Shown piece after piece: positions 983 to 59,097 of a stretch of 64,000 bases of DNA. The translations under genes were made by a program, and so were the position numbers. The notes below the pieces were generated by a model that worked only from the letters and a program-made list of their open reading frames with translations, was not told the DNA's origin and searched no databases. The DNA is from Thermomicrobiales bacterium (GTDB taxonomy: Bacteria > Chloroflexota > Chloroflexia > Thermomicrobiales > UBA6265), in assembly GCA_045804965.1 (NCBI GenBank), contig JBJMMD010000016.1:206724-270723 (forward strand). The letters run 5' to 3'. The stretch's first letter is position 1. Each line of letters begins with the position of its first letter.

Positions 983-998
983 TGCAAGTTGCATGCCG
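983..998 (-). promoter_or_regulatory. Sigma54-type -24/-12 motif CGGCATGCAACTTGCA
   Basis: GG-N10-GC spacing with GGCA and TTGC cores; intergenic. Confidence 0.55.
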
Positions 999-1265
999 AC
1001 GTTTACAGAGCGCGTGAGAGACCGGTGCGCTGCATTGTGATCCTCGTCCTCATTTCCGCGGCCGCGCTGCCTGGTTCGAAAGACCCTTACCCCGCTCACG
1101 AGCTCGAAGACTTTCCGAGGTTGATCCGGGGCAGGCTTTCTCGCGCTAGCGCTCGTCGCCGCGGAGAGCCTTTCTCGTGCGCGCCGGGATGAGCGATGTG
1201 CAATCTGAGGAGCTTCCGCAAGGCCGAGATAGCGGTCGAGGGTATTGCCTTGGTATCCTCCAGCG

Positions 1266-2435
1266 ATGGACAACGCGACGACGGAGCCGCACTTCGACAT
1301 CGGAATCATCGGCGCGGGCCAGCTTGCGCGGATGATGGTCCGGGCCGCGATCCCGCTCGGCCTGCGATTACGCGTGCTCGCGCAGTCGGTCAATGACAGC
1401 GCCGCGCTCGTTTGGCCTAATGTGGTCGTCGGTTCTCCCGACGATCCAAATACCGTGCTCGAGTTCGCGCGCCCGTGCGGCATTGTCACCTTCGACCATG
1501 AGCTGGTCTCGCCACGAAGCCTCGATCTGTTGGCTCGGAGCAACGTCGTGCTTCGACCGAGCGTGTCCACACTCCAATACGCCCAAAACAAACGTTGGCA
1601 GCGCGAAGAGTTTTCGCGTCGCGGGTTTCCCGTGCCGGCGTTTGCCGGTGTTCGCGTAGTGGACGACGTCGTCACGTTCGTTGCCTCCTACGGCTGGCCG
1701 GTCGCGCTGAAAACCGCTTACGGCGGATACGATGGCCGGGGAGTTTGGCGCATCGACAATGTCGGTGCCGCGATCGCCCTTCTGGAATCCGTTTCCGAGG
1801 CATCATGCGACATGCTGGTGGAACGCTGGATACCGATCGATCGTGAGATCGCGCTCATCGTCGCGCGCTCGCCGTCGGGCCAAATGGCGACGTATCCGGT
1901 GGTCGATACCGTACAACGAGATGGCATCTGTCGCGAAATTATCGCACCGGCTGACCTGCCGCCGCAACTATCGCAGCGCGCGACGCTCCTTGGCCGCGAA
2001 ATCGCCGAAGCGATCGACCTGACTGGCGTCATGGCGGTCGAATACTTCGTCGCCGGCGATGAACTGATCATCAACGAGATCGCGACGCGCCCCCACAATT
2101 CCGGTCATTACACGATAGAAGGCTCCGTCACCTCGCAGTTCGAGCAGCATCTGCGGGCGGTGATGGATTGGCCGCTCGGGCTGACGACATTGCGGTCCGA
2201 GCAAGTCGTCACCGTTAATGTCCTTGGGGGAACGGAGGCGATCGATCCTCGTGAGGCGCTGTCGGCGGCGCTTACGGATGAAAGCGTTCGAGTACATCTC
2301 TATGGCAAGTCGGCGCGACCTGGACGGAAACTCGGGCACGTCACGGTTACGGGACCCGATCTGGTTGACGCTCAAGCCCGAGCATGGCGAGCCGCGGAGC
2401 TATTGACCGGCGAACCGGCGGAGGTCAGGCAATGA
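1266..2435 (+). CDS. purK: N5-carboxyaminoimidazole ribonucleotide synthase
   Basis: GIIGAGQLARM, TFDHE, GGYDGRG, NEIATRPHNSGH, HLYGK..RPGRKLGHVT motifs. Confidence 0.96.
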   Translation: MDNATTEPHFDIGIIGAGQLARMMVRAAIPLGLRLRVLAQSVNDSAALVWPNVVVGSPDDPNTVLEFARPCGIVTFDHELVSPRSLDLLARSNVVLRPSVSTLQYAQNKRWQREEFSRRGFPVPAFAGVRVVDDVVTFVASYGWPVALKTAYGGYDGRGVWRIDNVGAAIALLESVSEASCDMLVERWIPIDREIALIVARSPSGQMATYPVVDTVQRDGICREIIAPADLPPQLSQRATLLGREIAEAIDLTGVMAVEYFVAGDELIINEIATRPHNSGHYTIEGSVTSQFEQHLRAVMDWPLGLTTLRSEQVVTVNVLGGTEAIDPREALSAALTDESVRVHLYGKSARPGRKLGHVTVTGPDLVDAQARAWRAAELLTGEPAEVRQ

Positions 2436-2980
2436 GCGATGGGCGGGAGCCGGCGGCGCCACGTGTCGCCGTCGTCATGGGCAGCGATTCCGATCTGCCG
2501 GTCATGCGGGCGGCGATCGATGCGCTCGACGAGTTCGGTGTCGAAAATGAGGTCCGCATCCTATCCGCGCACCGCACCCCCGACGCGATGCTTGCCTTCG
2601 CCCACGAAGCCGCGGGCCGCGGTCTGCAGGTCATCATCGCCGGCGCGGGCGGGGCCGCGCACCTGCCCGGCATGATCGCGTCGGCCACTCCCTTGCCGGT
2701 TATCGGCGTCCCCGTACCGACCACGCAACTGGCTGGAATCGATGCCCTGCTCTCGATTGCGCAAATGCCGGCGGGCGTCCCAGTCGCGACCGTCGCCATC
2801 GGCAATGGCCGCAACGCGGGACTGCTTGCGGTCCGCATGCTCGCCGCGTCCGATGCGTTACTGCGCGACGCAATGGAGCAGTTTCAGACGAGGCTTGCCG
2901 CAACGGTCCGCGACAAGGATGCCAACGTCCAACGTGAGCTTCGCGCGGAGCGAGCGGCAAAGATCAACCAACAGCCCTAG
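2432..2980 (+). CDS. purE: N5-CAIR mutase
   Basis: VMGSDSDLPVM, SAHRTP, IAGAGGAAHLPG, QMPAGVPVATV; ATGA overlap with purK. Confidence 0.97.
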   Translation: MSDGREPAAPRVAVVMGSDSDLPVMRAAIDALDEFGVENEVRILSAHRTPDAMLAFAHEAAGRGLQVIIAGAGGAAHLPGMIASATPLPVIGVPVPTTQLAGIDALLSIAQMPAGVPVATVAIGNGRNAGLLAVRMLAASDALLRDAMEQFQTRLAATVRDKDANVQRELRAERAAKINQQP

Positions 2981-3087
2981 TCGCCTCCTACCGGTCGATC
3001 CGCTCCATTGAGCACATCTCGACATCTGTCCAATATGTGGTACGATCCTGATGAAACAGACGTCCAGGTTGGCGGACAGGGGGAATC

Positions 3088-4476
3088 ATGCTGGCAAGTC
3101 CAGTCGCCGAATCGGCGGCTCCGGATGGTTCAGTCAGCGGTCCGTCCGAGAGCACGAGCGATGACGTCTTCACCATGGAGGAGGCTGCTCGTCGCAAAGG
3201 CGTCTCATACCACACCGTTTCGCGCGCCGTGCGCAGCGGCAAGCTGCGAGCTACGCGACGCGGCCGAAAGGCGCTCATCGACGGCAAAGATCTGCAGAGC
3301 TGGACGCCGATGCGCCAGCGCGCCCCCAAGCGTTACCGCAAACCTCAGGATCTCGCAGCGGTCCCTGGCATTCTCGATCTCGCATCGGATGGGAGCAGCG
3401 AGCTTGCTCGCAGGCTCGCCGTCTTCGCGCAATCAATCCACGCCGAGGCTGCCGAGCACGACCAGCAAACGTTCCATCAGCTCTTGTGCGATCGCTTCGC
3501 CCAGGCTGTCGGTCTCCGGCGTGTCACGCTCTGGCGCGTGGACCTCACCTGGAACATCTTGACCCAGCTCGCAGCATATGGGCCGGTTCCCCGGCAAGCC
3601 CCGACCCAAATGTCGCCGATTCCGCTTGAGCTTCGCCGCCATCTTGAGTCAAACTCGGTCGTCAACGTGCAGCCCGGCTTGGATAACACCATCTGGCCGG
3701 CCGACGCTCAGCTCGACCACGCTCGATCGATGGTGATCGCTCCACTGCGCCGTGGCGAGCAATTGATCGGCTCGTTCATCGGAGACTGGGACGGCGAACA
3801 GCACGAATTTTGCGAAGATGAGTTGGGCCTCACCCAGATCATAGCCAACCAGGCGGCGTTAGCATTTGACCTCGCCCGCTCGCGGGACAAGCTCGCGGCC
3901 GCGGATTGGCAGCTCGCGTTCGTGCTCGAACAGCTCCCCTACGGCATCATCCTCGTTGACTCGCCTGACGGACGTCTGATCTTCGCCAACTCCGCCGCGT
4001 GCGTGTTAATTGGGCGCCAGGACCTCGGACCGGACAGGACCCTCGCGGAGTTGCCACTCATCGCCGAGAAACCCGAGATCTTTGGCGACTTCGATCACCA
4101 GATCGAGGGAACCCTTACTGCCGGCAAGGCGGTGAGCGCTCAGCCGATTCGCGTCGTCAACCCGGACGGGAGCGAAACGGAGGCGATAATCTCCGTCAAT
4201 CCCATGCGCGACCGCGACGAGCGTCAGATTGGCGCCGTCTGCGTGCTGGAAACCGGCCCAGGCGCCGACCGCACCGCCAAGATGACGACCGCCATTGTCG
4301 ACTCCATCACTCACCAACTGCGCAATACGCTCACATCCCTCATCGGCAATGTGCAGTTGCTGCAGCGACACTTGCGTGGACAAGAGCCGGTCGATCTCGA
4401 CTTCGTCGCCGCTCGCGTCGACCGCATTGAAGCCAGCGGCATACAACTCGGCGCAGTCCTCAAAGCCCGCGAGTGA
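3088..4476 (+). CDS. HTH (excisionase-like)-GAF-PAS-HisKA signalling protein lacking an HATPase domain
   Basis: FTMEEAARRKGVSYHTVSRAVRSGKLRA (HTH_17-like); GAF ending IIANQAALA; PAS LPYGIILVD..IFANSAA; H-box-like THQLRNTLTSL, then stop. Confidence 0.8.
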   Translation: MLASPVAESAAPDGSVSGPSESTSDDVFTMEEAARRKGVSYHTVSRAVRSGKLRATRRGRKALIDGKDLQSWTPMRQRAPKRYRKPQDLAAVPGILDLASDGSSELARRLAVFAQSIHAEAAEHDQQTFHQLLCDRFAQAVGLRRVTLWRVDLTWNILTQLAAYGPVPRQAPTQMSPIPLELRRHLESNSVVNVQPGLDNTIWPADAQLDHARSMVIAPLRRGEQLIGSFIGDWDGEQHEFCEDELGLTQIIANQAALAFDLARSRDKLAAADWQLAFVLEQLPYGIILVDSPDGRLIFANSAACVLIGRQDLGPDRTLAELPLIAEKPEIFGDFDHQIEGTLTAGKAVSAQPIRVVNPDGSETEAIISVNPMRDRDERQIGAVCVLETGPGADRTAKMTTAIVDSITHQLRNTLTSLIGNVQLLQRHLRGQEPVDLDFVAARVDRIEASGIQLGAVLKARE

Positions 4477-4563: not shown

Positions 4564-6267
<1,704 letters not shown>

Positions 6268-7176: not shown

Positions 7177-7440
7177 CAATAACAACCAATCCAGTTGCCG
7201 CGGGTATGCACCGCGACAAAACAATCAGCCAACCAGGCGCATCCAAGAGCATGCGGTGGTAGGCATATTCCTAAACCCAAGGGGGCTGCGAGCGTTCGCG
7301 GATGCCACCGGTCGGCGCCGGTCGGCCCATTTTCCGCGGCCTCTTTTAGCATACCATGACGAAGGCTCCCTCGGAAGGGTCCGAGGGAGCCAAAAGCGAG
7401 CAAACGTTCGCCAGCGCGATGCGTGGCCCGGAAGTCTTGG

Positions 7441-8043
7441 CTACATTGCAGTAGTAGATACTCGCTCGGCTTCCGCCGCGGGCATGCGCATCGTGTGTTT
7501 CCCTTCGGCGATTTCCTCAATCAGCTTCCGGTTGAAGGCGGGAATGTCGTCCGGCTTGCGGCTGGTGACAATTCCCTGCTCGACTCGCACCTCCTCATCG
7601 ACCCACTTGCCGCCAGCGTTGCGGACATCTGTGCGCAAGCTCGGCCAAGAGGTAATGGTCCGCCCTTTCACGACATCTGCCTCGACCAGCATCCACGGTC
7701 CATGGCAGATTGCACCGATCGGCTTGTTGGTGTCGAAGAAGCGCCGGACAAAGGCGACCGCATCCTTATCGAGGCGCAGTTTATCTGGATTCGCGACGCC
7801 GCCCGGGATCACGAGCGCATCGTACTCGTCGGCGTTCGCTTGTTTGACGGTCTTATCCACAGGGAACTTGTCGCCTTTATCCATTCCCTTCACGCCCTGA
7901 ATAGAACCCTCCTTGATCGAGATCAATTCGGTTTTCGCGCCAGCGTTTTTGATCGCATTGAATGGTTCGATCAGCTCGGCTTGATCGACGCCGTCTGCAG
8001 CCAGGAATGCGACTCGTTTCCCTTGCAACTTGTTGTCCATCAT
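7441..8043 (-). CDS. PfpI/YhbO family (DJ-1) deglycase/protease
   Basis: LVIPGGVANPDKLR, AICHGPW, TSRKPDDIPAF. Confidence 0.92.
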   Translation of the reverse strand: MMDNKLQGKRVAFLAADGVDQAELIEPFNAIKNAGAKTELISIKEGSIQGVKGMDKGDKFPVDKTVKQANADEYDALVIPGGVANPDKLRLDKDAVAFVRRFFDTNKPIGAICHGPWMLVEADVVKGRTITSWPSLRTDVRNAGGKWVDEEVRVEQGIVTSRKPDDIPAFNRKLIEEIAEGKHTMRMPAAEAERVSTTAM

Positions 8044-8145
8044 GTCCCTTTGCTCCTCGGCCGCCTCGTTTGCTATGCAAACGCAACCGGCCGCTTCTGT
8101 TCTGAAATCCCAAGGCACTCGGAATGAGGCCTCAACGCATTACGC

Positions 8146-8161
8146 AGCAGACTCTGTGCCA
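8146..8161 (-). promoter_or_regulatory. Sigma54-type motif TGGCACAGAGTCTGCT upstream of the pfpI-like gene
   Basis: TGGCAC plus GG-N10-GC spacing. Confidence 0.6.
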
Positions 8162-8171
8162 GCGTGAGCGA

Positions 8172-8187
8172 TGGCATGTTGCTCGCG
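8172..8187 (+). promoter_or_regulatory. Sigma54-type motif TGGCATGTTGCTCGCG upstream of the MFS gene
   Basis: GG-N10-GC; the -12 element is imperfect (CGC). Confidence 0.4.
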
Positions 8188-8232
8188 AAGGGAGGACTGA
8201 GACTTTTTCGCGGTTGCCTTCGAGGAGTATTC

Positions 8233-9522
8233 ATGGCTATCGCCGCATCCCAGCGACGCCACGCCATCCACAGTTCTGCCGACCTCGCATGGCGCTACGC
8301 GAAGCTCAGCATTTACGGACTCGGTCTGCTGGCCCTCTGGAACACGGTCACAATCGTGCTCCTCCCGAACAGAGTCGAAGACACAGTCAGCGCGAGTTGG
8401 CGGGGAACCGCGCTCGGAGCGATTTCATTAATTGGCATCGGCGTGGCGGCGATCGCGCAGCCATTTGCGGGGCGGATAAGCGACCACGCCCCGTTTTCCG
8501 ACCGGAGGCGGCCGTTCATCCTTATTGGCACGGCGGCGATGGTTCCGAGTTTGGCCGTGTTCGGGTGGGCGCCCGATTTTGCTATCCTCTTCGTCGCATT
8601 CGTCCTCATGCAGCTCGCGGGCAATCTTGCCCAAGCCGCGTTCCAGGCGCTGATCCCTGATCTCGTCCCCAAAGAGGAAAGGGGTATCGCGTCCGGCGCC
8701 AAGAACGCCGTATCGGTCGTTGGTTCCGCTGTTGGATTGCTCGGCGCGCGCGTCTTGCTCGATCTCCCAAACGGATTGGCCGCCACGCTCACCTATGAAG
8801 CGGCCGTGCTCATCGCCGTCGCGGCCTTAACCATGCGCTGGGTCCCACCCGTGCCGCCACTTCCAGACAAGGACCGCGTGAAATCACTCTGGCAGGCGAT
8901 CGACCCACGGGTGCTCTGGCACGATTCGGTACAAACGTTCCGCGAGCACACCGTGTTCCGCCACGCCGTTCTCGGTCAGTTTCTCTTGCTCCTCGGCGCG
9001 TATCCCGCGCAACGTTTCTTGCTCTATTTTCTGAAGGATAGATTCGGGATCGAGGACCCGGAGCAGTCAACGGCGGTTGTATTGTTGGCGGCCACGGTAA
9101 TGGGCGGGATCGCGGCGGCGGTTTCCGGCGCGCTCTCCGATCACCTCGGACGCTTGCCGGTCATTCGCGCCAGCATTGTGATCACGGCGGTCGGCATGTT
9201 CGGGCTCTCGGTGGCGCCGACCGTCGCTACGGCGACGCTTGCCGGCGGGGTGCTCGGGCTGGGCATCGGCGCGTTCCTTTCCGTCAATTGGGCGCTCCTA
9301 AGCGATCACCTGCCGGAAGGGCGGGCGGCAAGGGCGTTTGGGCTCGCCAATATCGCGACCGCGGGCGCGAGTGCATTTGCCGGTCTGTTCGGTCCCCTCG
9401 TCGACATCATCAACGCCCAGTTCCCGCAAGGGACCTACCCGCTCACCTTCGGACTCTCGGCTGTAATCTCGCTGACCAGCCTGATCCCGTTTCAACGGAT
9501 CCAAGCGTCTGATGCGCGCTAG
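8233..9522 (+). CDS. MFS transporter
   Basis: About 12 hydrophobic segments; GRISDH..RRRPF and GALSDHLGR motif A; GAGGAG RBS. Confidence 0.9.
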   Translation: MAIAASQRRHAIHSSADLAWRYAKLSIYGLGLLALWNTVTIVLLPNRVEDTVSASWRGTALGAISLIGIGVAAIAQPFAGRISDHAPFSDRRRPFILIGTAAMVPSLAVFGWAPDFAILFVAFVLMQLAGNLAQAAFQALIPDLVPKEERGIASGAKNAVSVVGSAVGLLGARVLLDLPNGLAATLTYEAAVLIAVAALTMRWVPPVPPLPDKDRVKSLWQAIDPRVLWHDSVQTFREHTVFRHAVLGQFLLLLGAYPAQRFLLYFLKDRFGIEDPEQSTAVVLLAATVMGGIAAAVSGALSDHLGRLPVIRASIVITAVGMFGLSVAPTVATATLAGGVLGLGIGAFLSVNWALLSDHLPEGRAARAFGLANIATAGASAFAGLFGPLVDIINAQFPQGTYPLTFGLSAVISLTSLIPFQRIQASDAR

Positions 9523-9872
9523 GCGTGAATTGCGGCCATTTCTTGACAGGCGCTGGCGCAGTTCCGGCACGCCTCTGCGCAGCGTCGCATGATCGGATCA
9601 TTTTCAAATCGCGCGCAATCATCGGCGCAGCGCGCGCAAATCTCGGCACACACGGCGCATGTGCGAAAATAGTAATCCGACCCCCGGTGCATGAAATCAG
9701 CCGCCAGCGCGCAGATTTCCGCGCAATCCCACATGAGCCGGATGTGATCCAGCTTGGAATGCGCCCCACTCATCTTCAGGCAATGCGTGATCGTCTCCAC
9801 GCAGGCCCCGTGGCACGTTTCGCATAGCTCGATGCAATGCTCCATCTTGTTCGTGACGCCGGACATCTCCAC
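9519..9872 (-). CDS. Four-helix-bundle copper storage protein (Csp3/DUF326)
   Basis: Repeated CxxxC/CxxC: HCIELCETCHGAC, CAVCAEICARCADDC, RCAEACRNCASAC; no signal peptide. Confidence 0.9.
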   Translation of the reverse strand: MEMSGVTNKMEHCIELCETCHGACVETITHCLKMSGAHSKLDHIRLMWDCAEICALAADFMHRGSDYYFRTCAVCAEICARCADDCARFENDPIMRRCAEACRNCASACQEMAAIHA

Positions 9873-14453: not shown

Positions 14454-15386
14454 TTAGGGCAAGAGGAGCAATTGTTGAAGGTGATTTCCGGCAGGAACCG
14501 GATGTGCCCGAGATGGATACCGGTCGTCTTTCTGGCGGCTCATACTGTTGCGCGCGAATCCTGTGTTGACGAGTGCCTCGTCAATCCGCTCGCTTAGTCG
14601 CTGGAGGTAGTTCGCCGGTGCATTCGCGCCAACATATGCGCGCTCGTACCTGCCCAGCAGCTCTGGCCGGGCTTCGCGAAGAAATCCGAGATAGTGGTCT
14701 TTGACCAACGGCCCGAGCCGAAGCGGCGATGCCCCGAACGAGACCGCGCCGTGCGCCTTCGCGGCTCGAGCGACCGCCTCGATCGACGCCTGGGAATCGG
14801 TGATGCCGGGCAGTACTGGGGCCATGAACACGCCGGCCGGCACGCCCGCTTCGCGCAATCGTTGCATCGCTTGCAGCCGCTTCAGAGGTGGTGGAGTGCC
14901 CGGCTCAAGCGCGCGCCAGATCTCCGGATCGATCGTCGTGACTGTGAAGAACACGATGACCTCGGTCACCCGCGCTATGGCGGCCAGGAGTTCGAGATCA
15001 CGCTCGATCAAGGTGGACTTGGTAACGACGCTGACTGGGTGGCGATAGTCGCGCATTGCTTCCAGCGCCCGGCGAGTGAGCCTGTATTAGCCTTCAATCG
15101 GTTGATAAGGATCGGTCGCGGTGCCGATTGAAATCCGCTCCCCCGCCATCGCCGGTCGGGCAAGCTCTCGCCGCAGCACCTCCGGCAGGTTTGTTTTGAC
15201 GAAGATCGTCGACTCGAAATCATCGTCGGCGTTCAGCCCAAAGTAGCTATGGGTCGCACGGGCGTAGCAATAGTGGCAGGCATGGACGCAGCCGCGATAC
15301 GGGTTGAGCGACCACTTGAAGGGCATGCCCTGAACGCGATTGATCGCGCTCTTGCAGGCAATTTCGTTGTACGTGCGCTTCGCCAT
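14454..15386 (-). pseudogene. Rv2578c/SplB-like radical SAM protein interrupted by in-frame TAA (15087-15089)
   Basis: NPYRGCVHACHYCYAR (CxxxCxxC), GTATDPYQPIEG*YRLTRRALEAMRD continues in the same frame through TKS..RDL and EPGTP. Confidence 0.85.
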
Positions 15387-15421: not shown

Positions 15422-15426
15422 CCGAG

Positions 15427-15684
15427 CGTCATTCCGAGCCCGACGCGCACCCGTCGTCCTGAGAGCAGTTCCCTTCGTCATCCCGTACTCTACCTCCATT
15501 GTTATTCTGAGCCCTTTTATCGTCATTCCGAGCTTGTCGAGGAATCTGTCCCTTCCCACGGATGTGCCTCAGACGGGCGAGATTCTTCGCGGCGCTCAGA
15601 ATGACGGGTGGAGTAAGCGCTCAGGATGACGGGCGGGGCGGGCGCGCTCAAAATGACGGTGTGGGGTAAGTGCCCGAAATGACG
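15427..15684. repeat. Concentric array of CGTC-type REP half-sites around a REP doublet
   Basis: Forward CGTCATYCYGAGC-like units at 15427, 15452, 15476, 15500, 15521; reverse GCTCRRRATGACG-like units ending at 15606, 15631, 15658, 15684. Confidence 0.8.
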
Positions 15685-15736
15685 GTGGGAAGGCGTTCGG
15701 CATGGGAATGGAGAGGATCGCGCACATCGGCTTGTC

Positions 15737-18502: not shown

Positions 18503-18504
18503 CG

Positions 18505-19422: not shown

Positions 19423-19447
19423 CCTGGGCGATGGTGACAGGGATGAG

Positions 19448-39057: not shown

Positions 39058-39077
39058 ACAGGTTGCTCGGGTTGCGA

Positions 39078-44741: not shown

Positions 44742-45885
44742 GCACTACCTTGATCACGCCGTCGTCTTTCTTGTCGAAGAGAGCGTACGCTTCGGCGGCC
44801 CGGTCCAGCGGCATCCGATGGGTGATCACAAAAGTGGGATCAATCTGTCCCGCTTCGATTCGCTGCAAAAGATCGCGCCAATACTTCTGGATGTTGACCT
44901 GACCACCACGAATCGTCAGGCCCTTCTCCATCATGGCGCCAACCGGAAACTGATTTGCGTATCCGATGAAGTCGCCAATAACGGCGACCGTGCCGCCCTT
45001 CCGGACCGACCTGATCGCATCCGAAAGCCCGTCGATGGCATCGGACTCGAGTTTGAGCTTCTGTTGAACCTTGTGGCGGAGCGACCGTGCGTAGCGAAAA
45101 CCGGCAGCCTCAATGCAGACATCGGGACCGCGGCCTTCCGTTAATTCGCGGAGCGTCTTGGTCGGTTCGGATTCGTCAAAATTGATTGTCTCCGCCCCGA
45201 ATGTCTCCCGGGCGAGATCGAGCCGATAGCCGATATTGTCAATCGCGATCACGCGTTGCGCGCCGCGCACCCGCGCCCACGCCGTCGCCATCAGCCCGAC
45301 CGGACCGCAGCCGAAGATCGCCACCGTCTGTCCGTTGCACACACCGCCCAATTCGTTTGCATGCCAGCCAGTACAGAGGATGTCGGACAGAAACAGCACT
45401 TGCTCGTCTTCCAGGTGCTCAGGAACCGGCAAGCAACACACATCAGCATGCGGAACGCGTACGTATTCTGCCTGCCCGCCGGCGAAGCCACCCACAAGGT
45501 GGGAATAGCCAAAAATGCCAGCCGTGTGCTGCCCGTAGATCTCTTGCATCACCGGATTCGGATTAGTCGTTTCGCAAAGACTAAAGAGCCCATCCTTGCA
45601 AAACGAGCAGGTTCCGTCGGCGATCACCGCGGAAACGACAACGCGGTCTCCGGGCTTAATCGACTGAACGTCCGGCCCGACCTCTTCGACGATGCCCATG
45701 CATTCATGGCCAAGGATGTCGCCATCCTTCGTGTCAGGAATGTCGCCATGATAAAGGTGAAGATCGGAACCGCAGATCGTCGTCAGCGTGATCCGGACAA
45801 CCGCGTCTGTCGAATCGCCAATCACGGGTTTGGGACAGTCTTCGACCCGGACATCCTCCGCGCCGTGATAGACCAGTGCCTTCAT
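44731..45885 (-). CDS. Zn-dependent alcohol/formaldehyde dehydrogenase (YbdR-like)
   Basis: ICGSDLH, GHE, GGQAEYVRVP, LSDILCTG, GCGPVG. Confidence 0.92.
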   Translation of the reverse strand: MKALVYHGAEDVRVEDCPKPVIGDSTDAVVRITLTTICGSDLHLYHGDIPDTKDGDILGHECMGIVEEVGPDVQSIKPGDRVVVSAVIADGTCSFCKDGLFSLCETTNPNPVMQEIYGQHTAGIFGYSHLVGGFAGGQAEYVRVPHADVCCLPVPEHLEDEQVLFLSDILCTGWHANELGGVCNGQTVAIFGCGPVGLMATAWARVRGAQRVIAIDNIGYRLDLARETFGAETINFDESEPTKTLRELTEGRGPDVCIEAAGFRYARSLRHKVQQKLKLESDAIDGLSDAIRSVRKGGTVAVIGDFIGYANQFPVGAMMEKGLTIRGGQVNIQKYWRDLLQRIEAGQIDPTFVITHRMPLDRAAEAYALFDKKDDGVIKVVLTP

Positions 45886-45890
45886 CGCCT

Positions 45891-46976
45891 TCACTCCTGG
45901 CCTGTCGTCCTGTCTGGTCGATTGCGAAGGTTCTCGACCCGCGACCATTCCGACTGTGTTGAGAACTGATTCAACTGGCTCGCGGCCGATCGTCCGAGTG
46001 TTGTGAGCCTGTCTCGCCAATGCTCGTCCGACGCCGCTTCGATCTCGAGCCCCCTGACCGCTTCGTCGCCATTTGGCGCGGGCAACATCCGGTTCACCAA
46101 CCCGATCAATTGGGCGGTGAGGCCGGGCGCGATTCCATGGAATCGAGCAGCGATGAACGCGGGCAACGTAATCACCCGGTCAGCTTCTCTGCGCTTGGTC
46201 GCGCGGATGATCTGGCGCGCGGCGCGATCCGCATCTATCGAGATCACAGGCAAGCTGGCTGCTAACGAAAACCACGTATATTCCTCTTCAACCCGGCCCT
46301 TGAACAGCGCGTTGAGATGCGAGCCGGTCCGCATGAGGCCGGGGGTAATCGTGGTGACGGTAATACCCTGCTGGGCGAGCTCGGCGTGGAGTCCTTCCGA
46401 GAAACCGGTCGCCGCGAACTTGGCAGCGTCGTAGGGGAGCAAATGCGCCATGGCCATGCGGCCGCCGATTGAGGTGATATTGACGATTCGGCCGCTCTTC
46501 CGCTCCCGCATGCTCGGCAAGACGGCCAACGTCGGATAGAGCATTCCCCAGAACATGATGTCCATAGCCTGCTTGAAATCGTCGATCCGGCTCGATTCCA
46601 GCGGTCCAACCGTGATCACGCCCGCGTTGTTGATGAGCAGATCAATCGGTCCAAACCGCTTGCTCGCGATCGCGACCAGCTGTTCAACCTGGGCTTGGTT
46701 GGCAACATCGCATCGCGTGGCGAGAACCACGGCGCCGCGGGCGGCGAGTTCTTCCCGTGCCTGCTCGAGTTCAGCCACCTCGCGCGAACAGATCACCACC
46801 TTGCAGCCCTCGTCCGCGAGTCCGCGAGCGAGGGCAAGACCAAGTCCTCGCGAGCCTCCGGTGATCAGGGCCACCTTTCCGCCGAGATCGTCCTCTCGTA
46901 GACGCTGCGCAAACTCGCGACCAACGACGCTGGCCGCAAGTGCGCCCGCAACGAAGTTCCGCTTGTTACCAATCAT
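45891..46976 (-). CDS. SDR family oxidoreductase
   Basis: TGGSRGLG, NNAG, SIGG, YDAAK, PGLMRTGS. Confidence 0.93.
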   Translation of the reverse strand: MIGNKRNFVAGALAASVVGREFAQRLREDDLGGKVALITGGSRGLGLALARGLADEGCKVVICSREVAELEQAREELAARGAVVLATRCDVANQAQVEQLVAIASKRFGPIDLLINNAGVITVGPLESSRIDDFKQAMDIMFWGMLYPTLAVLPSMRERKSGRIVNITSIGGRMAMAHLLPYDAAKFAATGFSEGLHAELAQQGITVTTITPGLMRTGSHLNALFKGRVEEEYTWFSLAASLPVISIDADRAARQIIRATKRREADRVITLPAFIAARFHGIAPGLTAQLIGLVNRMLPAPNGDEAVRGLEIEAASDEHWRDRLTTLGRSAASQLNQFSTQSEWSRVENLRNRPDRTTGQE

Positions 46977-47011
46977 TCGTCGCCTCCTTTCCCTTCCTCG
47001 CACCACAGAGG

Positions 47012-47027
47012 CGCATGTGATGTGCCA
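47012..47027 (-). promoter_or_regulatory. Sigma54-type motif TGGCACATCACATGCG upstream of the SDR-dehydrogenase pair
   Basis: TGGCAC, GG-N10-GC, about 35 nt before the start. Confidence 0.6.
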
Positions 47028-47032
47028 GGCCG

Positions 47033-47048
47033 GGGCAGGAAAGTTGCG
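47033..47048 (+). promoter_or_regulatory. Sigma54-type motif GGGCAGGAAAGTTGCG upstream of the 47099 ORF
   Basis: GGCA..TTGC, GG-N10-GC; back-to-back with the 47012 motif. Confidence 0.5.
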
Positions 47049-47098
47049 TTCGCAGCACGGTGATTCGGTCGCGCAGGTCAACTGGAGGGGGAGTGGGA

Positions 47099-47611
47099 AT
47101 GGCGCGCTTGCTTGGCGGGGGTTTGGCGGGACTCCTGGCGACCTTTCCAATGTCATTTGTGATCGTGCTCGGCCGCAAGGTGGGCATGCTCTGGACGCCG
47201 CCGCCAAAGCAAATCACCGGCCGCGTTGCCAAAAAGGCAGGGGTCGAGCCACACGCGGATCAGGAAGCGTTCACGCTGAGTTGGGTCGCCGCGCATTTCG
47301 GTTATGGCGCGGCCTGCGGCGCGATCTACAGTGTGGCGAGGCCCCTGCTGCCAGCAAATCGCCGTGTTGCCGGAATGCTGTTCGGCGGCGTTGTGTGGGG
47401 CGTCAGCTACCTCGGCTACATCCCCGCGATCGGTCTCTACCCCTGGCCGAAGGATGACTCAAAATCACGCATGGCTGTCATGATCGCCGCCCACGCGGTC
47501 TATGGCGTCGCCACCTCACAGATCGACCAAGCCCTCTTCTCGACGCCTGAGGCGGCCAATTATCCTGCCGTCCTTCAATCTACCGACGAATTCGTGTATC
47601 GTCAGGCTTGA
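47099..47611 (+). CDS. Membrane protein (DUF1440/DUF6789-like)
   Basis: GGLAGLLATFPMS, AHFGYGA, GVVWGVSYLG, AHAVYG hydrophobic pattern. Confidence 0.75.
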   Translation: MARLLGGGLAGLLATFPMSFVIVLGRKVGMLWTPPPKQITGRVAKKAGVEPHADQEAFTLSWVAAHFGYGAACGAIYSVARPLLPANRRVAGMLFGGVVWGVSYLGYIPAIGLYPWPKDDSKSRMAVMIAAHAVYGVATSQIDQALFSTPEAANYPAVLQSTDEFVYRQA

Positions 47612-47829
47612 ACTGACGACTGACTGATTAATTGATAAGATGGTGCTTCTCACCAACACCCTCAACCGAGGGCCGCGTCCAGTTCAGGGTTCCCAAGACG
47701 ATTGAAAGGAGGAATAGGATCCGCTGAGTCAAGCCGAACGTCGGTCCGATCATCTCCGATCGCGACTGACTGTAGAGATTGGATCGATTCAGCACAGTTC
47801 ATAGCAACGAGAGAAGGGAGTGGATTTTG

Positions 47830-49200
47830 ATGAAACGACCGCTCGCGCTCATCGTCGTGCTTCTACTGATAGTTCCGCTGATCGGGATGATTTCCGGCCC
47901 TGGAACCGCCGGCGCGCAAAACGCCACCCCGGCAGTCAACACCGACATTTCGGGTGAGCTCAATGTCGCGATGGTGGCCAATCCACAGATGGTCGCCCTC
48001 CAGAAACTAGCGCCGGAATTCGAAAAGGCGTACCCAAACATCAAGCTGAATCTTCTGGTCCTGCCGGAAAACGAAGTGCGCGATCGCATTCGCACTGACG
48101 TCTCCACGCAGGCTGGGCAGTTCGACCTCGTCACAATCGGCATGTACGAGGCGTCAAATTACGCGCAAAACGGCTGGGTGCTCGATGTCGGCACGCCGTT
48201 GCAGGCTGACGCTTCTTACGACTACAACGACATCTTCCCGGCGATGGTGAGCGCGCTCTCTTACAAGGACAAGCTCTATGCCGCTCCGTTCTACGGCGAG
48301 AGCTCGATGGTCTTCTACCGCAAGGACCTCTTCCAGAAAGCCGGGTTGGAGATGCCGGAAAAGCCAACCTGGGACGATATCGGCCAATTCGCGCAAAAGC
48401 TCCACCACCCGCCGGACAATTACGGCATTTGCCTGCGTGGTTTGCCGGGTTGGGGCGAACAGGGAGCCCCGCTGACCAGCGTCATCAACGCGTTCGGTGG
48501 CCGTTGGTACGACGAGAACTGGAAGGCGCAGCTCGACTCCGAAAACAGCAAGGCTGCGATCAAGTTCTATACCGATCTGGTCAAAAACTACGGCGAGCCA
48601 AGCGCGACCCAGGCCGGCTTCACCGAGTGTGAAAACCTCTTCACGCAAGGAAAAGTCGCGATGTGGTACGACGCGACCTCAGCGGCAGACCTCCTGGCCG
48701 ACTCCAAGATCAATCCGCAAGCGGCTAACACCGGCTTTGCCTACCAACCGACCGAGAAAATCTCGAGCGGCTGGCTGTGGGCGTGGGCCTTCGCGATTGA
48801 GAAGAGCACGAAGCATCAAGACGCCGCACTTGCCTTCGTCAAGTGGGCAACCTCGAAGGATTATGTCCAGCTTGTCGCCAAGTCCCAGGGCTGGGGCTCA
48901 GTGCCTTCGGGAGCGCGCGCATCCACGTATGCAGACCCCGGCTACAAAGAGTACGCCAAGGCTTTTTCCGATATCGTGCTCAAAACGATCGAAGCGCAGG
49001 ACCCGACCAAGTGTTGCGTCGATCCTGTGCCGTACCACGGACTTCAATTCGTGCAAATCCCTGAGTTCGCTTCGCTTGGCAACGACGTGACAGCCGAGTT
49101 TGCCGCAGTGATTGCTGGAAATGAAAGCGCCGATGACGCGATCAAGAAGGCTAACGATCTCGCCAACCAAACCGCAATCGACGGCGGTTACCAGACTTAA
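47830..49200 (+). CDS. Polyol (sorbitol/mannitol SmoE-like) ABC substrate-binding protein
   Basis: VANPQM, LPENEVR, APFYGESS, GICLRGLPGWGE, MWYDAT, GWLWAW, QFVQIPEF. Confidence 0.88.
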   Translation: MKRPLALIVVLLLIVPLIGMISGPGTAGAQNATPAVNTDISGELNVAMVANPQMVALQKLAPEFEKAYPNIKLNLLVLPENEVRDRIRTDVSTQAGQFDLVTIGMYEASNYAQNGWVLDVGTPLQADASYDYNDIFPAMVSALSYKDKLYAAPFYGESSMVFYRKDLFQKAGLEMPEKPTWDDIGQFAQKLHHPPDNYGICLRGLPGWGEQGAPLTSVINAFGGRWYDENWKAQLDSENSKAAIKFYTDLVKNYGEPSATQAGFTECENLFTQGKVAMWYDATSAADLLADSKINPQAANTGFAYQPTEKISSGWLWAWAFAIEKSTKHQDAALAFVKWATSKDYVQLVAKSQGWGSVPSGARASTYADPGYKEYAKAFSDIVLKTIEAQDPTKCCVDPVPYHGLQFVQIPEFASLGNDVTAEFAAVIAGNESADDAIKKANDLANQTAIDGGYQT

Positions 49201-49227
49201 CAGTCGCCGCTGCATCAGAGAACATCG

Positions 49228-50190
49228 ATGGCGGTCGTAGACCAGCAAGCGGAAGTGGCGAGGGGCCAACTTGGCGGCCCCTCGCTCGCCCGACGTTTTC
49301 GCTGGTTCAATTCGAGCCGGCTGCTGATCACGCCTGCCTTGATTTTTGCGGTCCTCGTCACGCAAGCGCCGTTCGTGCTCACGCTGTACTACAGCACGCT
49401 TCGCTGGAACTTGCTGAGACCAGAAACAAAGGGCTTCGTCGGGCTCGAGAATTACCGGCGTATCCTCTTCGACGACGACGTCTTTCGCACCGCGATCTTG
49501 AATACGCTTGTCTTTACTGTAGGTGTCGTCACTGCCTCGATGTTACTCGGGCTGTTCTACGCCGAGCTCGTCAACCACCGATTTCCAGGACGTGGCATCG
49601 TGCGCACGATGCTTATCACACCGTTTCTCGTGATGCCGGTGGTCACCGCCCTGAGCTGGAAATACACGATGTTCGATCCCGACTTTGGCATCATCGACTG
49701 GGTGCTGCGCGAGGTTCAGCCCGGCAATTCAGACTGGAACCCGGTCTGGCTTTCCCATTACCCGAAGGAATCGATCATCATCATGCTCGTCTGGCGGTGG
49801 GCTCCGTTCATGATGCTGATACTGCTCGCTGGCATGCAGTCGATCGACGAAGAGGTACGTGAAGCGGCCAGAGTTGATGGCGCGACCGCACTTCAGGAGT
49901 TCTTCGGGATTACCCTGCCCCATCTCTACCGATACATGCAATTGGGGGCGTTGCTCGGCACGGTCTACATCGTGCAAGAGTTCGACGCCATCTTTATGAC
50001 AACTCAGGGCGGACCAGGAACCGCGACTATGAATCTCTCATTCATGGTCTATCGGCGCGCAATCGCAGGCAGCAACGTGGGTTATGGTGCAGCGCTTGGC
50101 GTGGTGATTGTCGCGTTGACCATTGTTGCGATGACGCTCATTCTGCGCGTGCTCGACCGCATGATGCGAGGGGCCTATGAGGAGCGCTAG
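49228..50190 (+). CDS. Carbohydrate ABC permease (SmoF-like)
   Basis: TQAPF, ITPFLVMP, EAARVDGA, TQGGPG. Confidence 0.92.
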   Translation: MAVVDQQAEVARGQLGGPSLARRFRWFNSSRLLITPALIFAVLVTQAPFVLTLYYSTLRWNLLRPETKGFVGLENYRRILFDDDVFRTAILNTLVFTVGVVTASMLLGLFYAELVNHRFPGRGIVRTMLITPFLVMPVVTALSWKYTMFDPDFGIIDWVLREVQPGNSDWNPVWLSHYPKESIIIMLVWRWAPFMMLILLAGMQSIDEEVREAARVDGATALQEFFGITLPHLYRYMQLGALLGTVYIVQEFDAIFMTTQGGPGTATMNLSFMVYRRAIAGSNVGYGAALGVVIVALTIVAMTLILRVLDRMMRGAYEER

Positions 50191-56459: not shown

Positions 56460-57380
56460 ATGGACCACGCCCAAGACGTTCAGTTCGCCCATGGCGACAC
56501 GATGTTGGCCGGAACGCTGCGCCGCCCCGAGGGTTCTGAACCACATCCCGCCCTGGTGATGCTGCAGGGCTCAGGCCCGGCCGACCGGGACAGTGATGGT
56601 TACTTCCCGCCCTTACGCGATCACTTCGTGGGCAGCGGTTTCGCCGTGCTTTCCTGGGACAAACCTGGCATCGGCGGGTCGACGGGGCGTTGGACGCGGA
56701 TGACGATCTTCGACCGGGCAGCCGAAGCGCTGACCGCGATCAAGTGGCTCCGGCTGCAAGATGGGATCGATGCCTCACGCGTCGGCATCTGGGGTCACAG
56801 TCAGGGCGGCTGGGTCGGCCCACTTGCCGCGTCCCAATCGCGCGATCTCGCCTTTCTCATCGTCAATTCTGGACCGGCGATCGGTCTGCACGAGCAAGAT
56901 TTGTACGGCATTGAACACACGCTACGCGACGACGGGGTGGACGACGAAGAGATCGCCCGCGCGCTCGAGTTCATGCGCGCGATCCACACCGCCGCACTGC
57001 GAGGCGCATCATACGACGAGGTCAAGCAGACGATCCTGGAAGAAGCGAGAGGTAAGCCCCGATTCGACTACCTCGGCGATTTCGGCTCCGACGAATGGCA
57101 CTTAGAGGTCATCTACGCCCAGCATCCTTACGATCCAGCCCCGCCGCTCGCGCTCATTACGTGTCCCATGTTGGTGATTTTTGGCGAGCTGGACCCGCTC
57201 GTGCCGGTCCAGAAAAGCGCGCGAGTTTTCGAATCGCTCGGTGCATCATCAGGCCACGACGTCACCGTTCGCATCTTTCCCGGAGCAAATCACCGGATTA
57301 AGGTCGGCGAACCCAAGGACTTCGCGCCAGGATACCTCGACACGATGACGCAGTGGATTTGGGAACGAATCCGCTCCTGA
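56460..57380 (+). CDS. Alpha/beta hydrolase
   Basis: GSGP, DKPGIG, GHSQGG nucleophile, GELDPLV, GANH. Confidence 0.9.
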   Translation: MDHAQDVQFAHGDTMLAGTLRRPEGSEPHPALVMLQGSGPADRDSDGYFPPLRDHFVGSGFAVLSWDKPGIGGSTGRWTRMTIFDRAAEALTAIKWLRLQDGIDASRVGIWGHSQGGWVGPLAASQSRDLAFLIVNSGPAIGLHEQDLYGIEHTLRDDGVDDEEIARALEFMRAIHTAALRGASYDEVKQTILEEARGKPRFDYLGDFGSDEWHLEVIYAQHPYDPAPPLALITCPMLVIFGELDPLVPVQKSARVFESLGASSGHDVTVRIFPGANHRIKVGEPKDFAPGYLDTMTQWIWERIRS

Positions 57381-57842
57381 GCGATTTCGCGCATGTGACG
57401 CCCGCACGGGCCGGGCACAATGCTTCTGCCCTCGGATGAGCCGCGTCGAACCTGAAATGCGACCAACTCGTAATTTAATCCGACGCGACTGGAATGTCGG
57501 CGAATGGAGGTCACGCTGTACGGCGTGACGTTACTTTTCCGTAAGCAATACACCGCGCACGAAGGTTTGCCCGGCTCGAAACGCGATGCGTCTGCTAAAG
57601 ACGATCCCGAAACGATTCGGAACTTCCTAAAGCAACTCGACGACGAAGTAGCGGCAGCGTAGTCGCCGAGTTCGACCGCACGCACAAAACGACGAGCGCC
57701 CGGCAAGGATGCTGGGGCGCTCGTTGCGTGTCGGGTCGAATCTGTTGAACCCGGGTCGGCTGGCGGTGAGACTCGGCATCTCGTCATCGCTCCATCGCAG
57801 GACTATAAAGGCGATATATCAGTCAATACCGTTTGAAATAAA

Positions 57843-57878
57843 TGCCGAGGCCGGTTCAAGCTCGAACCGGCCTCGGCA
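57843..57878 (-). terminator. Intrinsic terminator after the 57917 gene
   Basis: TGCCGAGGCCGGTTC-aagctc-GAACCGGCCTCGGCA stem followed by TTTATTT on the minus strand. Confidence 0.7.
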
Positions 57879-57916
57879 GAGAAGGTAATTAAGATTCGGT
57901 TCGCTCGGAACCGAAA

Positions 57917-58192
57917 CTAATCGGCTTCGTCTAGATCACGATAGCTCGTACCAGACTTGGCAAGGCCGCGACTGAGCATGTAACCGATTCCTAGCGCGGT
58001 AACCAGTGTCCAAGCCCACTGTCCATCTAAGCTATCGTCAAACCTACTCGCGATTAATACCGCGGCTACCGCAGCAATGAGGATCATGAGTTCTGTCGTC
58101 TTGAAGGAGGGCTTCGTCTCCTCGCGCAGACGGGTGACAACTCTGTCCTCGACTCTCCCTACACCAATCACTTCGCGATTCGCGGTAACCAC
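57917..58192 (-). CDS. Small two-TM membrane protein
   Basis: ETKPSFKTTE-TM-AWTLVTALGIGYMLSRGLAKSG; pattern I recall from actinobacterial hypothetical proteins. Confidence 0.75.
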   Translation of the reverse strand: MVTANREVIGVGRVEDRVVTRLREETKPSFKTTELMILIAAVAAVLIASRFDDSLDGQWAWTLVTALGIGYMLSRGLAKSGTSYRDLDEAD

Positions 58193-58300
58193 GCCTTACC
58201 CTTTCCGTCGGCCGCCCCTATTCCGCGCCTAGTCTCAGCGACTACCGGCTCGGACCATCCGACCGGCGCCGCCGCGCGTTGGCGAACCACTCGTCATAAA

Positions 58301-58316
58301 GGCAGGAACGATGCCA
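58301..58316 (-). promoter_or_regulatory. Sigma54-type motif TGGCATCGTTCCTGCC (also reads GG-N10-GC on the + strand)
   Basis: GGCAGGAACGATGCC satisfies GG-N10-GC on both strands, between divergent ORFs. Confidence 0.55.
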
Positions 58317-58526
58317 TGGTTCGCCGACCGAGCGGTCTGCCGACTTGCCTGATTAGGCGGCGAGAGTCGGGCCGTCACTGTCTCACCTCAGCACGAGCAC
58401 AGGACCTTTGCGACCACTACCGCACTTCCAACTAGTCGGGCTTGTTCTTTTGGGAATAAAGCGTAAAGTGTGGATGCTCCCGCCACGAGGTATCCGTCTC
58501 ATTCGGCCCACGAATTGAGGTGTGCA

Positions 58527-58907
58527 ATGCCCGAACGACGCGAGGTTACGGAGACCTACTGGACGTGGTGCTCCAAGTGGCATGTGCCTTACCCTTGTCG
58601 AAAGACCCGTGTTGTCACGAAGTGGTGTTACGAGTTTTCGTTCATCATAGTTAGCAACCGGGGTTTCTGGACAAATAACTGGGGCTGTGAGTTCAACATT
58701 CGGTATGAATGGCGGGATTGGCATTTTTTCCCGGTCGGCTTCGACGACTCAACTGTCTACTTCGTAGAAAAATGCTTCACGAACCAACTTGAGAGCAGTG
58801 GTGCATGCTCCTCTGCCGTCGCGGTCGACTACTTGAAGAAAACGCTAGGCCCTGACTTGGCGAGCCTGCTGAATGAAGGCGGGTCTGACAAAGAGACGAC
58901 CGAATAA
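58527..58907 (+). CDS. Hypothetical Cys/Trp-rich protein
   Basis: GAGGTG RBS; WTWCSKWHVPYPCRK...KWCYEF...WGCE...KCF...GAC; visibly AT-richer than the flanks. Confidence 0.65.
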   Translation: MPERREVTETYWTWCSKWHVPYPCRKTRVVTKWCYEFSFIIVSNRGFWTNNWGCEFNIRYEWRDWHFFPVGFDDSTVYFVEKCFTNQLESSGACSSAVAVDYLKKTLGPDLASLLNEGGSDKETTE

Positions 58908-58994
58908 CCACCCGCGTTTTCGTTCGAATTGAGTGGCTTTCCTATCACATCATGGCTATCCCGTCGCTGACGAGGCAACCGGGTCGCACAACGC

Positions 58995-59071
58995 AAAAAG
59001 AACGGCTCCGGGGGAGAGGGGGACCGGAGCCGTTCAGGGAAGGGACGGCCGCGCATTCGACGCGGCAGCCA
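58995..59071 (-). ncRNA. Candidate ~77-nt sRNA with C-rich (anti-SD-like) segments
   Basis: 5' hairpin, UCCCUUCCCU linker, 12-bp terminator stem with UCCCCCUCUCCC loop and UUUUU; promoter motif directly upstream; no ORF. Confidence 0.55.
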
Positions 59072-59081
59072 CAACCGCTAA

Positions 59082-59097
59082 CGCAGCGGATATGCCA
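59082..59097 (-). promoter_or_regulatory. Sigma54-type motif TGGCATATCCGCTGCG
   Basis: TGGCAY, GG-N10-GC; predicted +1 near 59071. Confidence 0.55.

Follow-up and report, generated by a model that had tools for sequence, protein, structure and literature searches.

Nine sigma-54-type promoter motifs in a 64-kb stretch of a Thermomicrobiales genome and the predicted regulon to which they may belong

Motifs and genes of the window

The stretch of DNA that was analysed, called the window here, is a 64-kb part of a Thermomicrobiales genome (G000:C16:206724-270723), the assembly of which comprises 4.71 Mb in 57 contigs and is 95.9% complete. A first-pass annotation of the window had claimed nine intergenic motifs of the form GGCA-N8-GC, each facing an open reading frame (ORF) or a hairpin unit, and had read them as promoters of the -24/-12 type recognized by RpoN (sigma-54). 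A search with this pattern recovered all nine sites, and the GG-N10-GC spacing was exact in 9/9. The sites are therefore real, as is the TGC described at -12 in eight of them (the exception, 8173(+), carries CGC and is the weakest -12 element match among the nine), whereas the start positions first given lay one base before the GG. By our own gene call, 9/9 sites lie between called genes. Eight face an ORF located 36-314 nt away, and the ninth, 59083(-), faces a terminator-bounded hairpin unit of ~80 nt, in agreement with the first description. Scores on a position weight matrix (PWM) derived from the genome ranged from 12.1 to 17.6 bits. The sites, reported as cores of 14 nt, are the following.

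984-997, minus strand: sigma-54-type -24/-12 core GGCATGCAACTTGC, 17.6 bits, 249 nt upstream of a hypothetical ORF at 360-734(-)
8147-8160, minus strand: sigma-54-type core, 13.6 bits, 103 nt upstream of the PfpI/DJ-1 gene 7441-8043(-)
8173-8186, plus strand: sigma-54-type core with CGC at -12, 13.5 bits, 46 nt upstream of the MFS gene 8233-9522(+)
32302-32315, minus strand: sigma-54-type core, 16.3 bits, 314 nt upstream of a hypothetical ORF at 31652-31987(-)
36303-36316, minus strand: sigma-54-type core, 13.7 bits, 78 nt upstream of the glgX-pgi operon, in which glgX, 34077-36224(-), overlaps pgi, 32422-34080(-)
47013-47026, minus strand: sigma-54-type core, 13.5 bits, 36 nt upstream of the SDR gene 45891-46976(-), which is followed by a Zn-dehydrogenase gene, 44731-45894(-)
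47034-47047, plus strand: sigma-54-type core, 12.1 bits, 51 nt upstream of a DUF1440/DUF6789 membrane-protein gene, 47099-47611(+)
58302-58315, minus strand: sigma-54-type core, 14.4 bits, 109 nt upstream of an ORF for a small membrane protein, 57917-58192(-), with two terminator-like hairpins after it
59083-59096, minus strand: sigma-54-type core, 13.2 bits, no ORF faced

The targets that had been named, namely PfpI, MFS, glgX-pgi, SDR with Zn-dehydrogenase and the membrane protein, were confirmed by Pfam. The Pfam scan of the window also detected purK/purE, pyrG and several ABC operons, and the PWM scan found no site of at least 12 bits upstream of purK, pyrG or the ABC operons, as had been noted. 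Likewise, no gene for an AAA+ activator was found within the window by profile search and Pfam scan; the activator gene described below lies on another contig (C26). The HTH_17-GAF-PAS regulator encoded at 3088-4476(+), adjoining purE, is not an AAA+ activator and is therefore not the missing enhancer-binding protein.

Two pairs of sites stand back to back, with 12 nt between the -24 elements of 8147(-) and 8173(+) and 7 nt between those of 47013(-) and 47034(+). Because so few nucleotides separate the -24 elements, these pairs leave no room for an enhancer between them. At 8147-8186 and 47013-47047, two holoenzymes may clash or share one activator contact. Back-to-back pairing as a general architecture was rejected: genome-wide there are 5 divergent pairs within 150 nt, and both tight ones are in the window.

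Taken alone, the window is weak evidence, because the loose motif is barely above chance there. The loose pattern matched 88 times, compared with 59.9 +/- 8.2 matches expected, and 1/100 shuffles reached 88; TGGCA-N7-TGC matched 7 times, compared with 2.3 +/- 1.6 expected, and again 1/100 shuffles reached that number. The observation is more than chance because of the genome-wide tests of spacer, orientation and conservation.

Motif distribution, conservation and the sigma-54 machinery

Genes for the genome-wide counts were predicted with our own codon-usage ORF caller, a crude tool, which called 4065 genes and 83.7% of the genome as coding. In gene-facing intergenic DNA, GGCA-Nk-TGC occurred 185 times at k=7, compared with 63-122 times (mean 88) at the eleven other values of k between 2 and 13, and TGGCA-Nk-TGC occurred 68 times at k=7, compared with 13-30 times at other spacings. 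For GGCA-Nk-TGC with k=2-13, no such spacer peak was present in coding or non-facing DNA. The 185 gene-facing matches at k=7 stood against 62 non-facing ones, the baseline share of intergenic positions that are gene-facing being 0.59. The fuller pattern TGGCAC-N5-TTGC was found at 13 facing, 0 non-facing and 8 coding positions. When gene context was left aside, the raw count of TGGCAY-N5-TTGC was 34, compared with 14-24 at other spacers, a contrast too weak for use across relatives.

A 22-nt PWM was built from the facing sites, giving the consensus c-n-T-GGCA-y-G-N4-t-TGC-g. At a threshold of 13 bits and without holding out any site, this PWM matched 140 facing, 13 non-facing and 82 coding positions. 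Because it had been trained on facing sites, the scan was repeated as a two-fold held-out test, in which 111 facing, 13 non-facing and 98 coding sites reached at least 13 bits (126, 21 and 12 per Mb, respectively), and 156 facing and 23 non-facing sites reached at least 12 bits. The held-out enrichment was thus 6- to 10-fold. As predicted from these scores, the true promoters may number at least ~120, with perhaps up to ~190 candidates at 12 bits. No other 64 kb of the genome is as rich in facing sites as the window, which has 10-11 where the mean is ~2.6. Positions outside the core carried almost no information in a profile from -200 to +80, so that the motif is not a repeated element.

On promoters of the -24/-12 type, sigma-54 holoenzyme forms a closed complex, the opening of which needs ATP hydrolysis by an AAA+ activator with a GAFTGA motif. 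The search for both partners that the first-pass annotation had advised revealed one complete rpoN gene and one GAFTGA activator gene in the genome, both outside the window. The rpoN gene, on contig C33 (L129:6096-7562(-)), encodes a protein of 488 aa with AID, CBD and DBD domains and the RpoN box ARRTVAKYR. Its nearest named relatives, at 55-82% identity, are encoded by metagenome-assembled genomes titled Thermomicrobiales or Chloroflexia bacterium, in line with the probable Thermomicrobiales host that had been proposed for this DNA. The genome also contains 37 sigma-70-family matches.

The activator corresponds to the one strong PF00158 match (250 bits), on contig C26, and combines a receiver (REC) domain, an AAA+ domain with GAFTGA, a lid and HTH_8, which by its predicted domain order is the architecture of the NtrC type. 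Three other PF00158 matches scored 21.8-34.5 bits, and the one of these that was scanned with Pfam gave a weak Mg-chelatase-type match and nothing else. The neighbours of the activator gene encode an FGGY sugar kinase and an aroK-aroB fusion; there is no adjoining histidine kinase, which makes the activator an orphan.

The RpoN protein has an unusual feature. Directly after region I it carries a CPxCG-x7-CPxC insertion, the four cysteines of which are invariant in 4/4 aligned Thermomicrobiales RpoN proteins. In contrast, solved sigma-54 proteins of the Klebsiella/E. coli type have the acidic region II at that place and no cysteines. The Cys4 insertion could provide the sigma factor with a redox module or one that resembles a zinc ribbon. 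Among the papers listed by a literature search on sigma-54 region II and zinc, none dealt with a Cys-rich insertion.

Sigma factor and activator were then compared in 40 relatives of the same family and order, in tallies that include the unpublished genomes G007, G011 and G036. rpoN was detected in 27/40 and a strong activator in 26/40, with few exceptions in the same genomes. A single activator is encoded in 25 genomes, and two are encoded in one (G019). Four genomes of family f4, each 99% complete, have neither gene. Mismatches were found in G006, G017 and G018, which are 65-86% complete, and in G010 (91%), which has the activator and a sub-threshold rpoN match only. In seven relatives (G012, G013, G014, G019, G028, G032 and G036) the two genes lie on the same contig, ~1-3 kb apart.

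Conservation of the sites was analysed with homologues of six window target proteins in the 40 relatives, by scanning 400 nt upstream with the PWM at a threshold of 10.5 bits. The results per target were as follows.

Hypothetical 360-734: site at 4/4 homologue loci, in four genera, one of the loci (L189) being from the unpublished G007
Hypothetical 31652-31987: site at 1/1 locus
SDR: site at 7/13 loci, 56-169 nt upstream
glgX: site at 8/29 loci, and at 8/18 when non-self loci with tblastn identity of at least 58% are considered
PfpI: site at 5/27 loci, three of them among four orthologues with 62-68% identity and two more distant
DUF1440: site at 3/17 loci

Over all six targets, the motif was present on the sense strand at 28/91 homologue loci, compared with 4/91 on the antisense strand. 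Motif-bearing loci made up 26/74 of those in rpoN-positive genomes and 2/17 of those in others; in the latter two (G010 and G017) the activator is present, so that rpoN is probably unassembled. The motifs of the PfpI orthologues lie 69-96 nt upstream in G020 (14.3 bits), G019 (13.9) and G015 (11.1), whereas the PfpI homologues of the four rpoN-less f4 genomes have none. In G019 the homologue of hypothetical 360-734 adjoins the PfpI orthologue (contig C106; L088, L187), and in G020 it is located ~11 kb from the glgX orthologue (contig C196; L134, L188). These placements suggest that the sigma-54 targets of the window tend to stay near each other in other genera.

The same-genus genome G001 is syntenic with the window at ~70-80% DNA identity. 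In aligned syntenic DNA 3/4 sites are kept: that at 984 occurs at the same syntenic place (16.8 bits), that at 32302 is kept in place (17.5 bits) and that at 36303 has a counterpart at equal distance (12.8 bits). At 984 and 32302 the spacer letters have changed while the motif has been kept. The fourth, 47034(+), has no counterpart, nothing of at least 11.5 bits being found at the syntenic place; given this and the low count for DUF1440 homologues, its predicted promoter is the least certain of the nine, with weak conservation. The other five sites, that at 58302 among them, are in segments missing from the syntenic region of G001 (7409-9537, 44721-47126 and 57362-59566). These three segments look like small cassettes, holding PfpI and MFS, Zn-dehydrogenase and SDR, and the small membrane protein with a hypothetical and the small RNA candidate, respectively. 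Each cassette comes with one or more sigma-54-type promoters, which suggests that genes driven by sigma-54 are gained and lost as cassettes. A fourth segment missing from G001 spans 15422-25833.

The strongest single conservation result of the sequence comparison is a site beside rpoN itself. One copy of TGGCAAG-N4-CTTGCT lies next to rpoN on the opposite strand in 6/6 genomes (5/5 named public loci and the genome studied here), with 13.6-17.4 bits, and is the sole match of at least 13 bits in each locus of 7.8-13.5 kb. Its coordinates are L129:7732-7745(+), that is G000 C33:26731-26744, and ~5600-5830(-) in L180-L184. In the two annotated loci (G000 and L181) it points at a divergent gene for an M50-CBS peptidase, which in G000 is followed by genes for Rrf2 and a class-V aminotransferase (cysteine-desulfurase-like).

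Of the checks that the first-pass annotation had proposed, those made on sequence came out in favour of the promoter reading: in the whole-genome scan the motif is enriched at a single spacer length in gene-facing intergenic DNA, and it recurs both upstream of homologues and beside rpoN. With rpoN present, the spacer, orientation and conservation tests argue for an RpoN-type promoter, its activity being predicted from sequence.

The predicted regulon and its interpretation

Pfam was run on the first downstream gene of 80 of the 87 non-window sites of at least 14 bits, leaving out one duplicate gene and the six lowest-scoring sites. The protective and redox proteins found were DUF2382+DUF2171, DUF2171, PRC+DUF2171, HSP20, Fe/Mn superoxide dismutase (SOD), SDR, PNPOx-like, SRPBCC, ChaB, YHS, two cupredoxin proteins and HD_5. 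Transport was represented by seven ABC solute-binding proteins and two permeases, and the cell envelope by NlpC/P60-SH3, M23-SH3, YfhO, GT87, two GT2, GT1/4, AT3-SGNH and a C39-like peptidase. Signalling targets comprised four single-domain receivers, CheB, a Ser/Thr kinase, Crp and a LuxR/NB-ARC protein. Class II ribonucleotide reductase (RNR), GatB, citrate synthase, NDH-2, topoisomerase IB and ROK were also found, and 21/80 downstream genes had no Pfam family. Overall, 187/4065 genes carry a site of at least 12 bits upstream; by family, the counts are 4/6 for DUF2171, 9/39 for SBP_bac_1, 1/3 for HSP20, 1/7 for the PfpI family and 1/2 for DUF2382. The single hpf gene has no upstream site of at least 11 bits. 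Among 10 Usp genes checked there were three matches of at least 11 bits, each lacking an intact GG or GC, and the four glnA-family genes and the single amtB have no site of at least 10 bits within 900 nt upstream. The predicted set is thus broad: stress protection is one clear theme, next to the scavenging and storage of carbohydrates and the remodelling of the envelope, and a pure dormancy programme does not describe it.

Most of the nine sites are very probably real sigma-54 promoters. We favour the explanation, to which we give a probability of about 0.6, that they belong to a broad adaptive set of ~120, perhaps 190, sigma-54 promoters under a single activator; a global programme driven by one activator is likely. 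From the observed motif statistics, conservation, domain content and co-occurrence we infer binding by RpoN, service of all sites by the one activator, the signal and the physiological role. RpoN-holoenzyme would be held at the -24 GG and the -12 GC as a closed complex, which the AAA+ enhancer-binding protein would open using ATP. Phosphorylation of the orphan receiver by a kinase would switch on all promoters together, since with one activator in the genome the phosphorylation of a single protein would suffice for the whole set. Its output would range from protective and redox proteins and the breakdown of glycogen to ABC binding proteins for sugar scavenging, the remodelling of the envelope and small signalling proteins, together with a few small RNAs or leaders.

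Several observations weigh against this explanation. The gene caller was crude, and some intergenic calls or distances may be wrong. From the density of non-facing or coding matches, the expected share of false sites at 12-13 bits is ~7-15%. Among the nine, about one may be spurious, and the weakest are 47034(+) and 8173(+). Housekeeping-looking targets such as GatB, citrate synthase and class II RNR fit a conditional programme poorly. With the genome at less than full completeness, a further activator could be unassembled. Neither rpoN nor the activator gene has a site of its own of at least 10 bits in the PWM scan of upstream DNA, and autoregulation of either was rejected for this reason. 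Four soil metatranscriptomes yielded short low-depth contigs, none of them over 32001-32667, 36003-36669 or 46675-47341, which is neutral for the sites (six soil RNA runs contained 14-17% of the sequence words of window 40000-49999, and four were compared over 30000-49999).

A further difficulty is the enhancer. No shared enhancer was found upstream of 117-140 sites, as neither dyads (4-5-mers with gaps of 0-12) nor 6-7-mers were significantly enriched and a palindromic Gibbs search reached 7.48 bits, compared with 7.34-7.63 in four control sets; these methods are crude, and site-specific or degenerate enhancers would escape them. An AT-rich bend region between -200 and -30 was not seen in the positional information profile. 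The activator nonetheless keeps its HTH_8 DNA-binding domain. It might act from solution or from weak, varied sites. We also entertain, as a tentative possibility, that the Cys4-bearing sigma-54 and its one orphan activator form a genome-wide, enhancer-independent master switch of more than 100 promoters, a functional analogue of a general-stress or stationary-phase sigma factor, with a regulon larger than that of the single activator of Chlamydia with its 64 induced genes (PMC7482065). A redox or metal signal might then act on the sigma factor itself through the Cys4 module.

The first-pass annotation had gone in a narrower direction, with an RpoN-like sigma that may run the general-stress/dormancy programme. 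In the stronger form of this claim, the sigma-54 set would be a specific general-stress and dormancy regulon, a stand-in for SigB or RpoS turned on at growth arrest. SigB (Bacillus) and RpoS regulons include PfpI, SDR, DUF2382/YsnF-like, PNPOx-like and small heat-shock proteins and SOD, and in B. subtilis the general stress proteins that depend on SigB include DUF2382 (YsnF), PfpI-like, SDR and PNPOx-like ones. The kinds of protein do overlap, because HSP20, Fe/Mn-SOD, PfpI, two SDRs, PNPOx-like, SRPBCC, ChaB, YHS, cupredoxins and DUF2382/DUF2171/PRC proteins are in the set, DUF2171 genes carry a site far more often than genes overall, and glgX-pgi fits the use of stored glycogen; to this extent the label is supported. 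However, hpf and the Usp genes are outside the set, most HSP20 and PfpI-family genes have no site, the YtxH gene in the window has none upstream either, and a large share of the targets belongs to transport, envelope, signalling or central metabolism. SigB and RpoS moreover belong to another sigma family and are controlled by partner switching or proteolysis, whereas an ATP-dependent activator is predicted here, and the 37 sigma-70-family matches mean that other stress sigma factors are available. We therefore regard a dedicated general-stress regulon as unlikely, and dormancy is not specifically supported.

The remaining alternatives fare worse. It is very unlikely that the motif is functional and bound by another protein, for instance a transcription factor or an extracytoplasmic function (ECF) sigma factor with a similar two-block site. 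The many sigma-70-family genes and the failure to find an enhancer would suit such a binder, but TGGCAyG-N4-tTGC with strict GG-N10-GC spacing is the sigma-54 consensus, motif-bearing loci occur almost only in genomes with rpoN or the activator, the site beside rpoN is kept in all six genomes, and the rpoN-less f4 genomes have motif-free PfpI homologues. That the nine sites are random hits of a short degenerate pattern in DNA of 61% G+C is strongly disfavoured: the loose pattern, which besides its 88 occurrences in the window has 5523 in the genome, is indeed equally dense in coding and intergenic DNA (ratio 1.02), yet the excess is limited to one spacer length and one orientation, it survives holding out, and sites are conserved in place while their spacers diverge. 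A classical NtrC regulon of nitrogen assimilation, which the domain architecture of the sole activator might suggest, is scarcely credible and was rejected, as none of the glnA-family and amtB genes has a site and no nitrogen-assimilation family is present among the 80 scanned downstream genes or the window targets.

Sigma-54 is usually described as serving small regulons that are controlled separately, each by an activator and an enhancer of its own. A 1999 compilation by Barrios et al. reportedly gives the proteobacterial consensus as TGGCACG-N4-TTGCW; the promoters predicted here have the same GG-N10-GC geometry as canonical proteobacterial ones and a near-identical extended consensus, and the machinery has the same AID/CBD/DBD and RpoN box in RpoN and the same GAFTGA activator. 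They differ in that the canonical system has many specialised activators, whereas one is found here for more than 100 predicted promoters, with no detectable enhancer or AT-rich bend region.

The nearest described parallel is the single-activator regulon of Chlamydia trachomatis, in which CtcB/CtcC-sigma-54 induces 64 genes and 28 consensus promoters were shown by experiment (PMC7482065). There, too, a single NtrC-family activator and one sigma-54 control a programme of many genes that is linked to a switch in cell state, and many targets are membrane, envelope or hypothetical proteins. Unlike in Chlamydia, the ~120-190 promoters are here predictions from sequence alone, the organism is a free-living soil bacterium, and the activator keeps its HTH_8 domain. 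The Rrp2-RpoN-RpoS pathway of Borrelia burgdorferi likewise uses one response-regulator activator and one sigma-54 as a global switch, but its sigma-54 acts mainly through rpoS, whereas here the motif stands directly before many structural genes (PMC2940757). Francke et al. (2011) described sigma-54 as 'controller of the bacterial exterior' and recorded it only in 'some Chloroflexi', giving no Chloroflexi regulon (PMC3162934). Cell-wall hydrolases, glycosyltransferases, acyltransferase, YfhO and transporters among the targets agree with their theme, while soluble protective proteins, equally strong here, depart from it. Chloroflex* and Thermomicrob* are absent from the main text of a 2025 cross-phylum sigma-54 study with position-specific scoring matrices (PMC12316311). 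Among the titles listed in searches on sigma-54 in Chloroflexi and on RpoN in Thermomicrobia, Chloroflexota, Thermomicrobiales or Sphaerobacter, none was on this subject.

If the favoured explanation is true, sigma-54 would be usable as a global switch outside obligate parasites. Most of this family pairs one sigma-54 with one activator, and in this genome more than 100 predicted -24/-12 promoters go together with no detectable common enhancer. The set would also offer a first entry point to gene regulation in Thermomicrobiales, a group that is widespread in soils and deserts but has been little studied, and the promoter list provides testable targets, including candidate small RNAs and leaders.

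Leaders, candidate small RNAs and other observations in the window

Downstream of three of the sites, the predicted transcripts contain the following features.

956-972, minus strand: hairpin CTGCCA-GCAAT-TGGCAG, where transcripts of the 984 promoter are predicted to have their 5' end
32180-32290, minus strand: conserved leader of ~110 nt, directly downstream of the 32302 promoter
58993-59072, minus strand: candidate small RNA of ~75-80 nt, predicted from the 59083 promoter, with no ORF

In the alignment with G001 the hairpin at 956-972 shows one compensatory change, from A-U to C-G, and may act as a 5' stabilising stem-loop. The leader at 32180-32290 is far better conserved in G001 than its flanks, contains a hairpin with a UUCG loop and occurs once in the genome; it could represent a novel cis-regulatory element of the RNA or a small RNA. 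The unit at 58993-59072, in the segment missing from G001, has one hairpin on its 5' side and a second, G+C-rich terminator hairpin with TTTTT after it. Its minimum free energy is -39.6 kcal/mol (z = -4.5 compared with 200 shuffles), it is also present in a single copy, and it is a candidate sigma-54-dependent small RNA. An Rfam scan of the window, including the leader and this unit, gave no match at gathering score.

Two extra intergenic candidate sites, absent from the first-pass annotation, were found in the window.

42861-42874, minus strand: candidate TGGCAGGAATCATGC, 13.6 bits, 13 nt before the called start of an accD/accA-type carboxyltransferase gene
15963-15976, minus strand: candidate with GGCT at -24, 12.3 bits, in the gap before 16027(+)

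Both are doubtful as promoters. The first lies inside a longer possible ORF, 40841-43447, and has no counterpart at the syntenic place in G001; the second sits in a 10.4-kb segment missing from G001 synteny.

The radical-SAM domain encoded at 14454-15386(-) is split over adjacent ORFs of 200 aa and 99 aa, which may reflect a frameshift, a pseudogene or an assembly error. A gene for a PIN-domain (VapC-like) protein at 38246-39000(-) is preceded by a MazE/AbrB-type antitoxin gene, the two forming an ordinary toxin-antitoxin pair. Finally, in three RNA runs, each from a different study, contigs have their first base at 47660, 47665 and 47660, ~170 nt before the ABC sugar-binding protein gene 47830-49200. 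With no PWM match nearby, these ends give a weak hint that 47660-47665(+) is the transcript start of a promoter that is not of the sigma-54 type.

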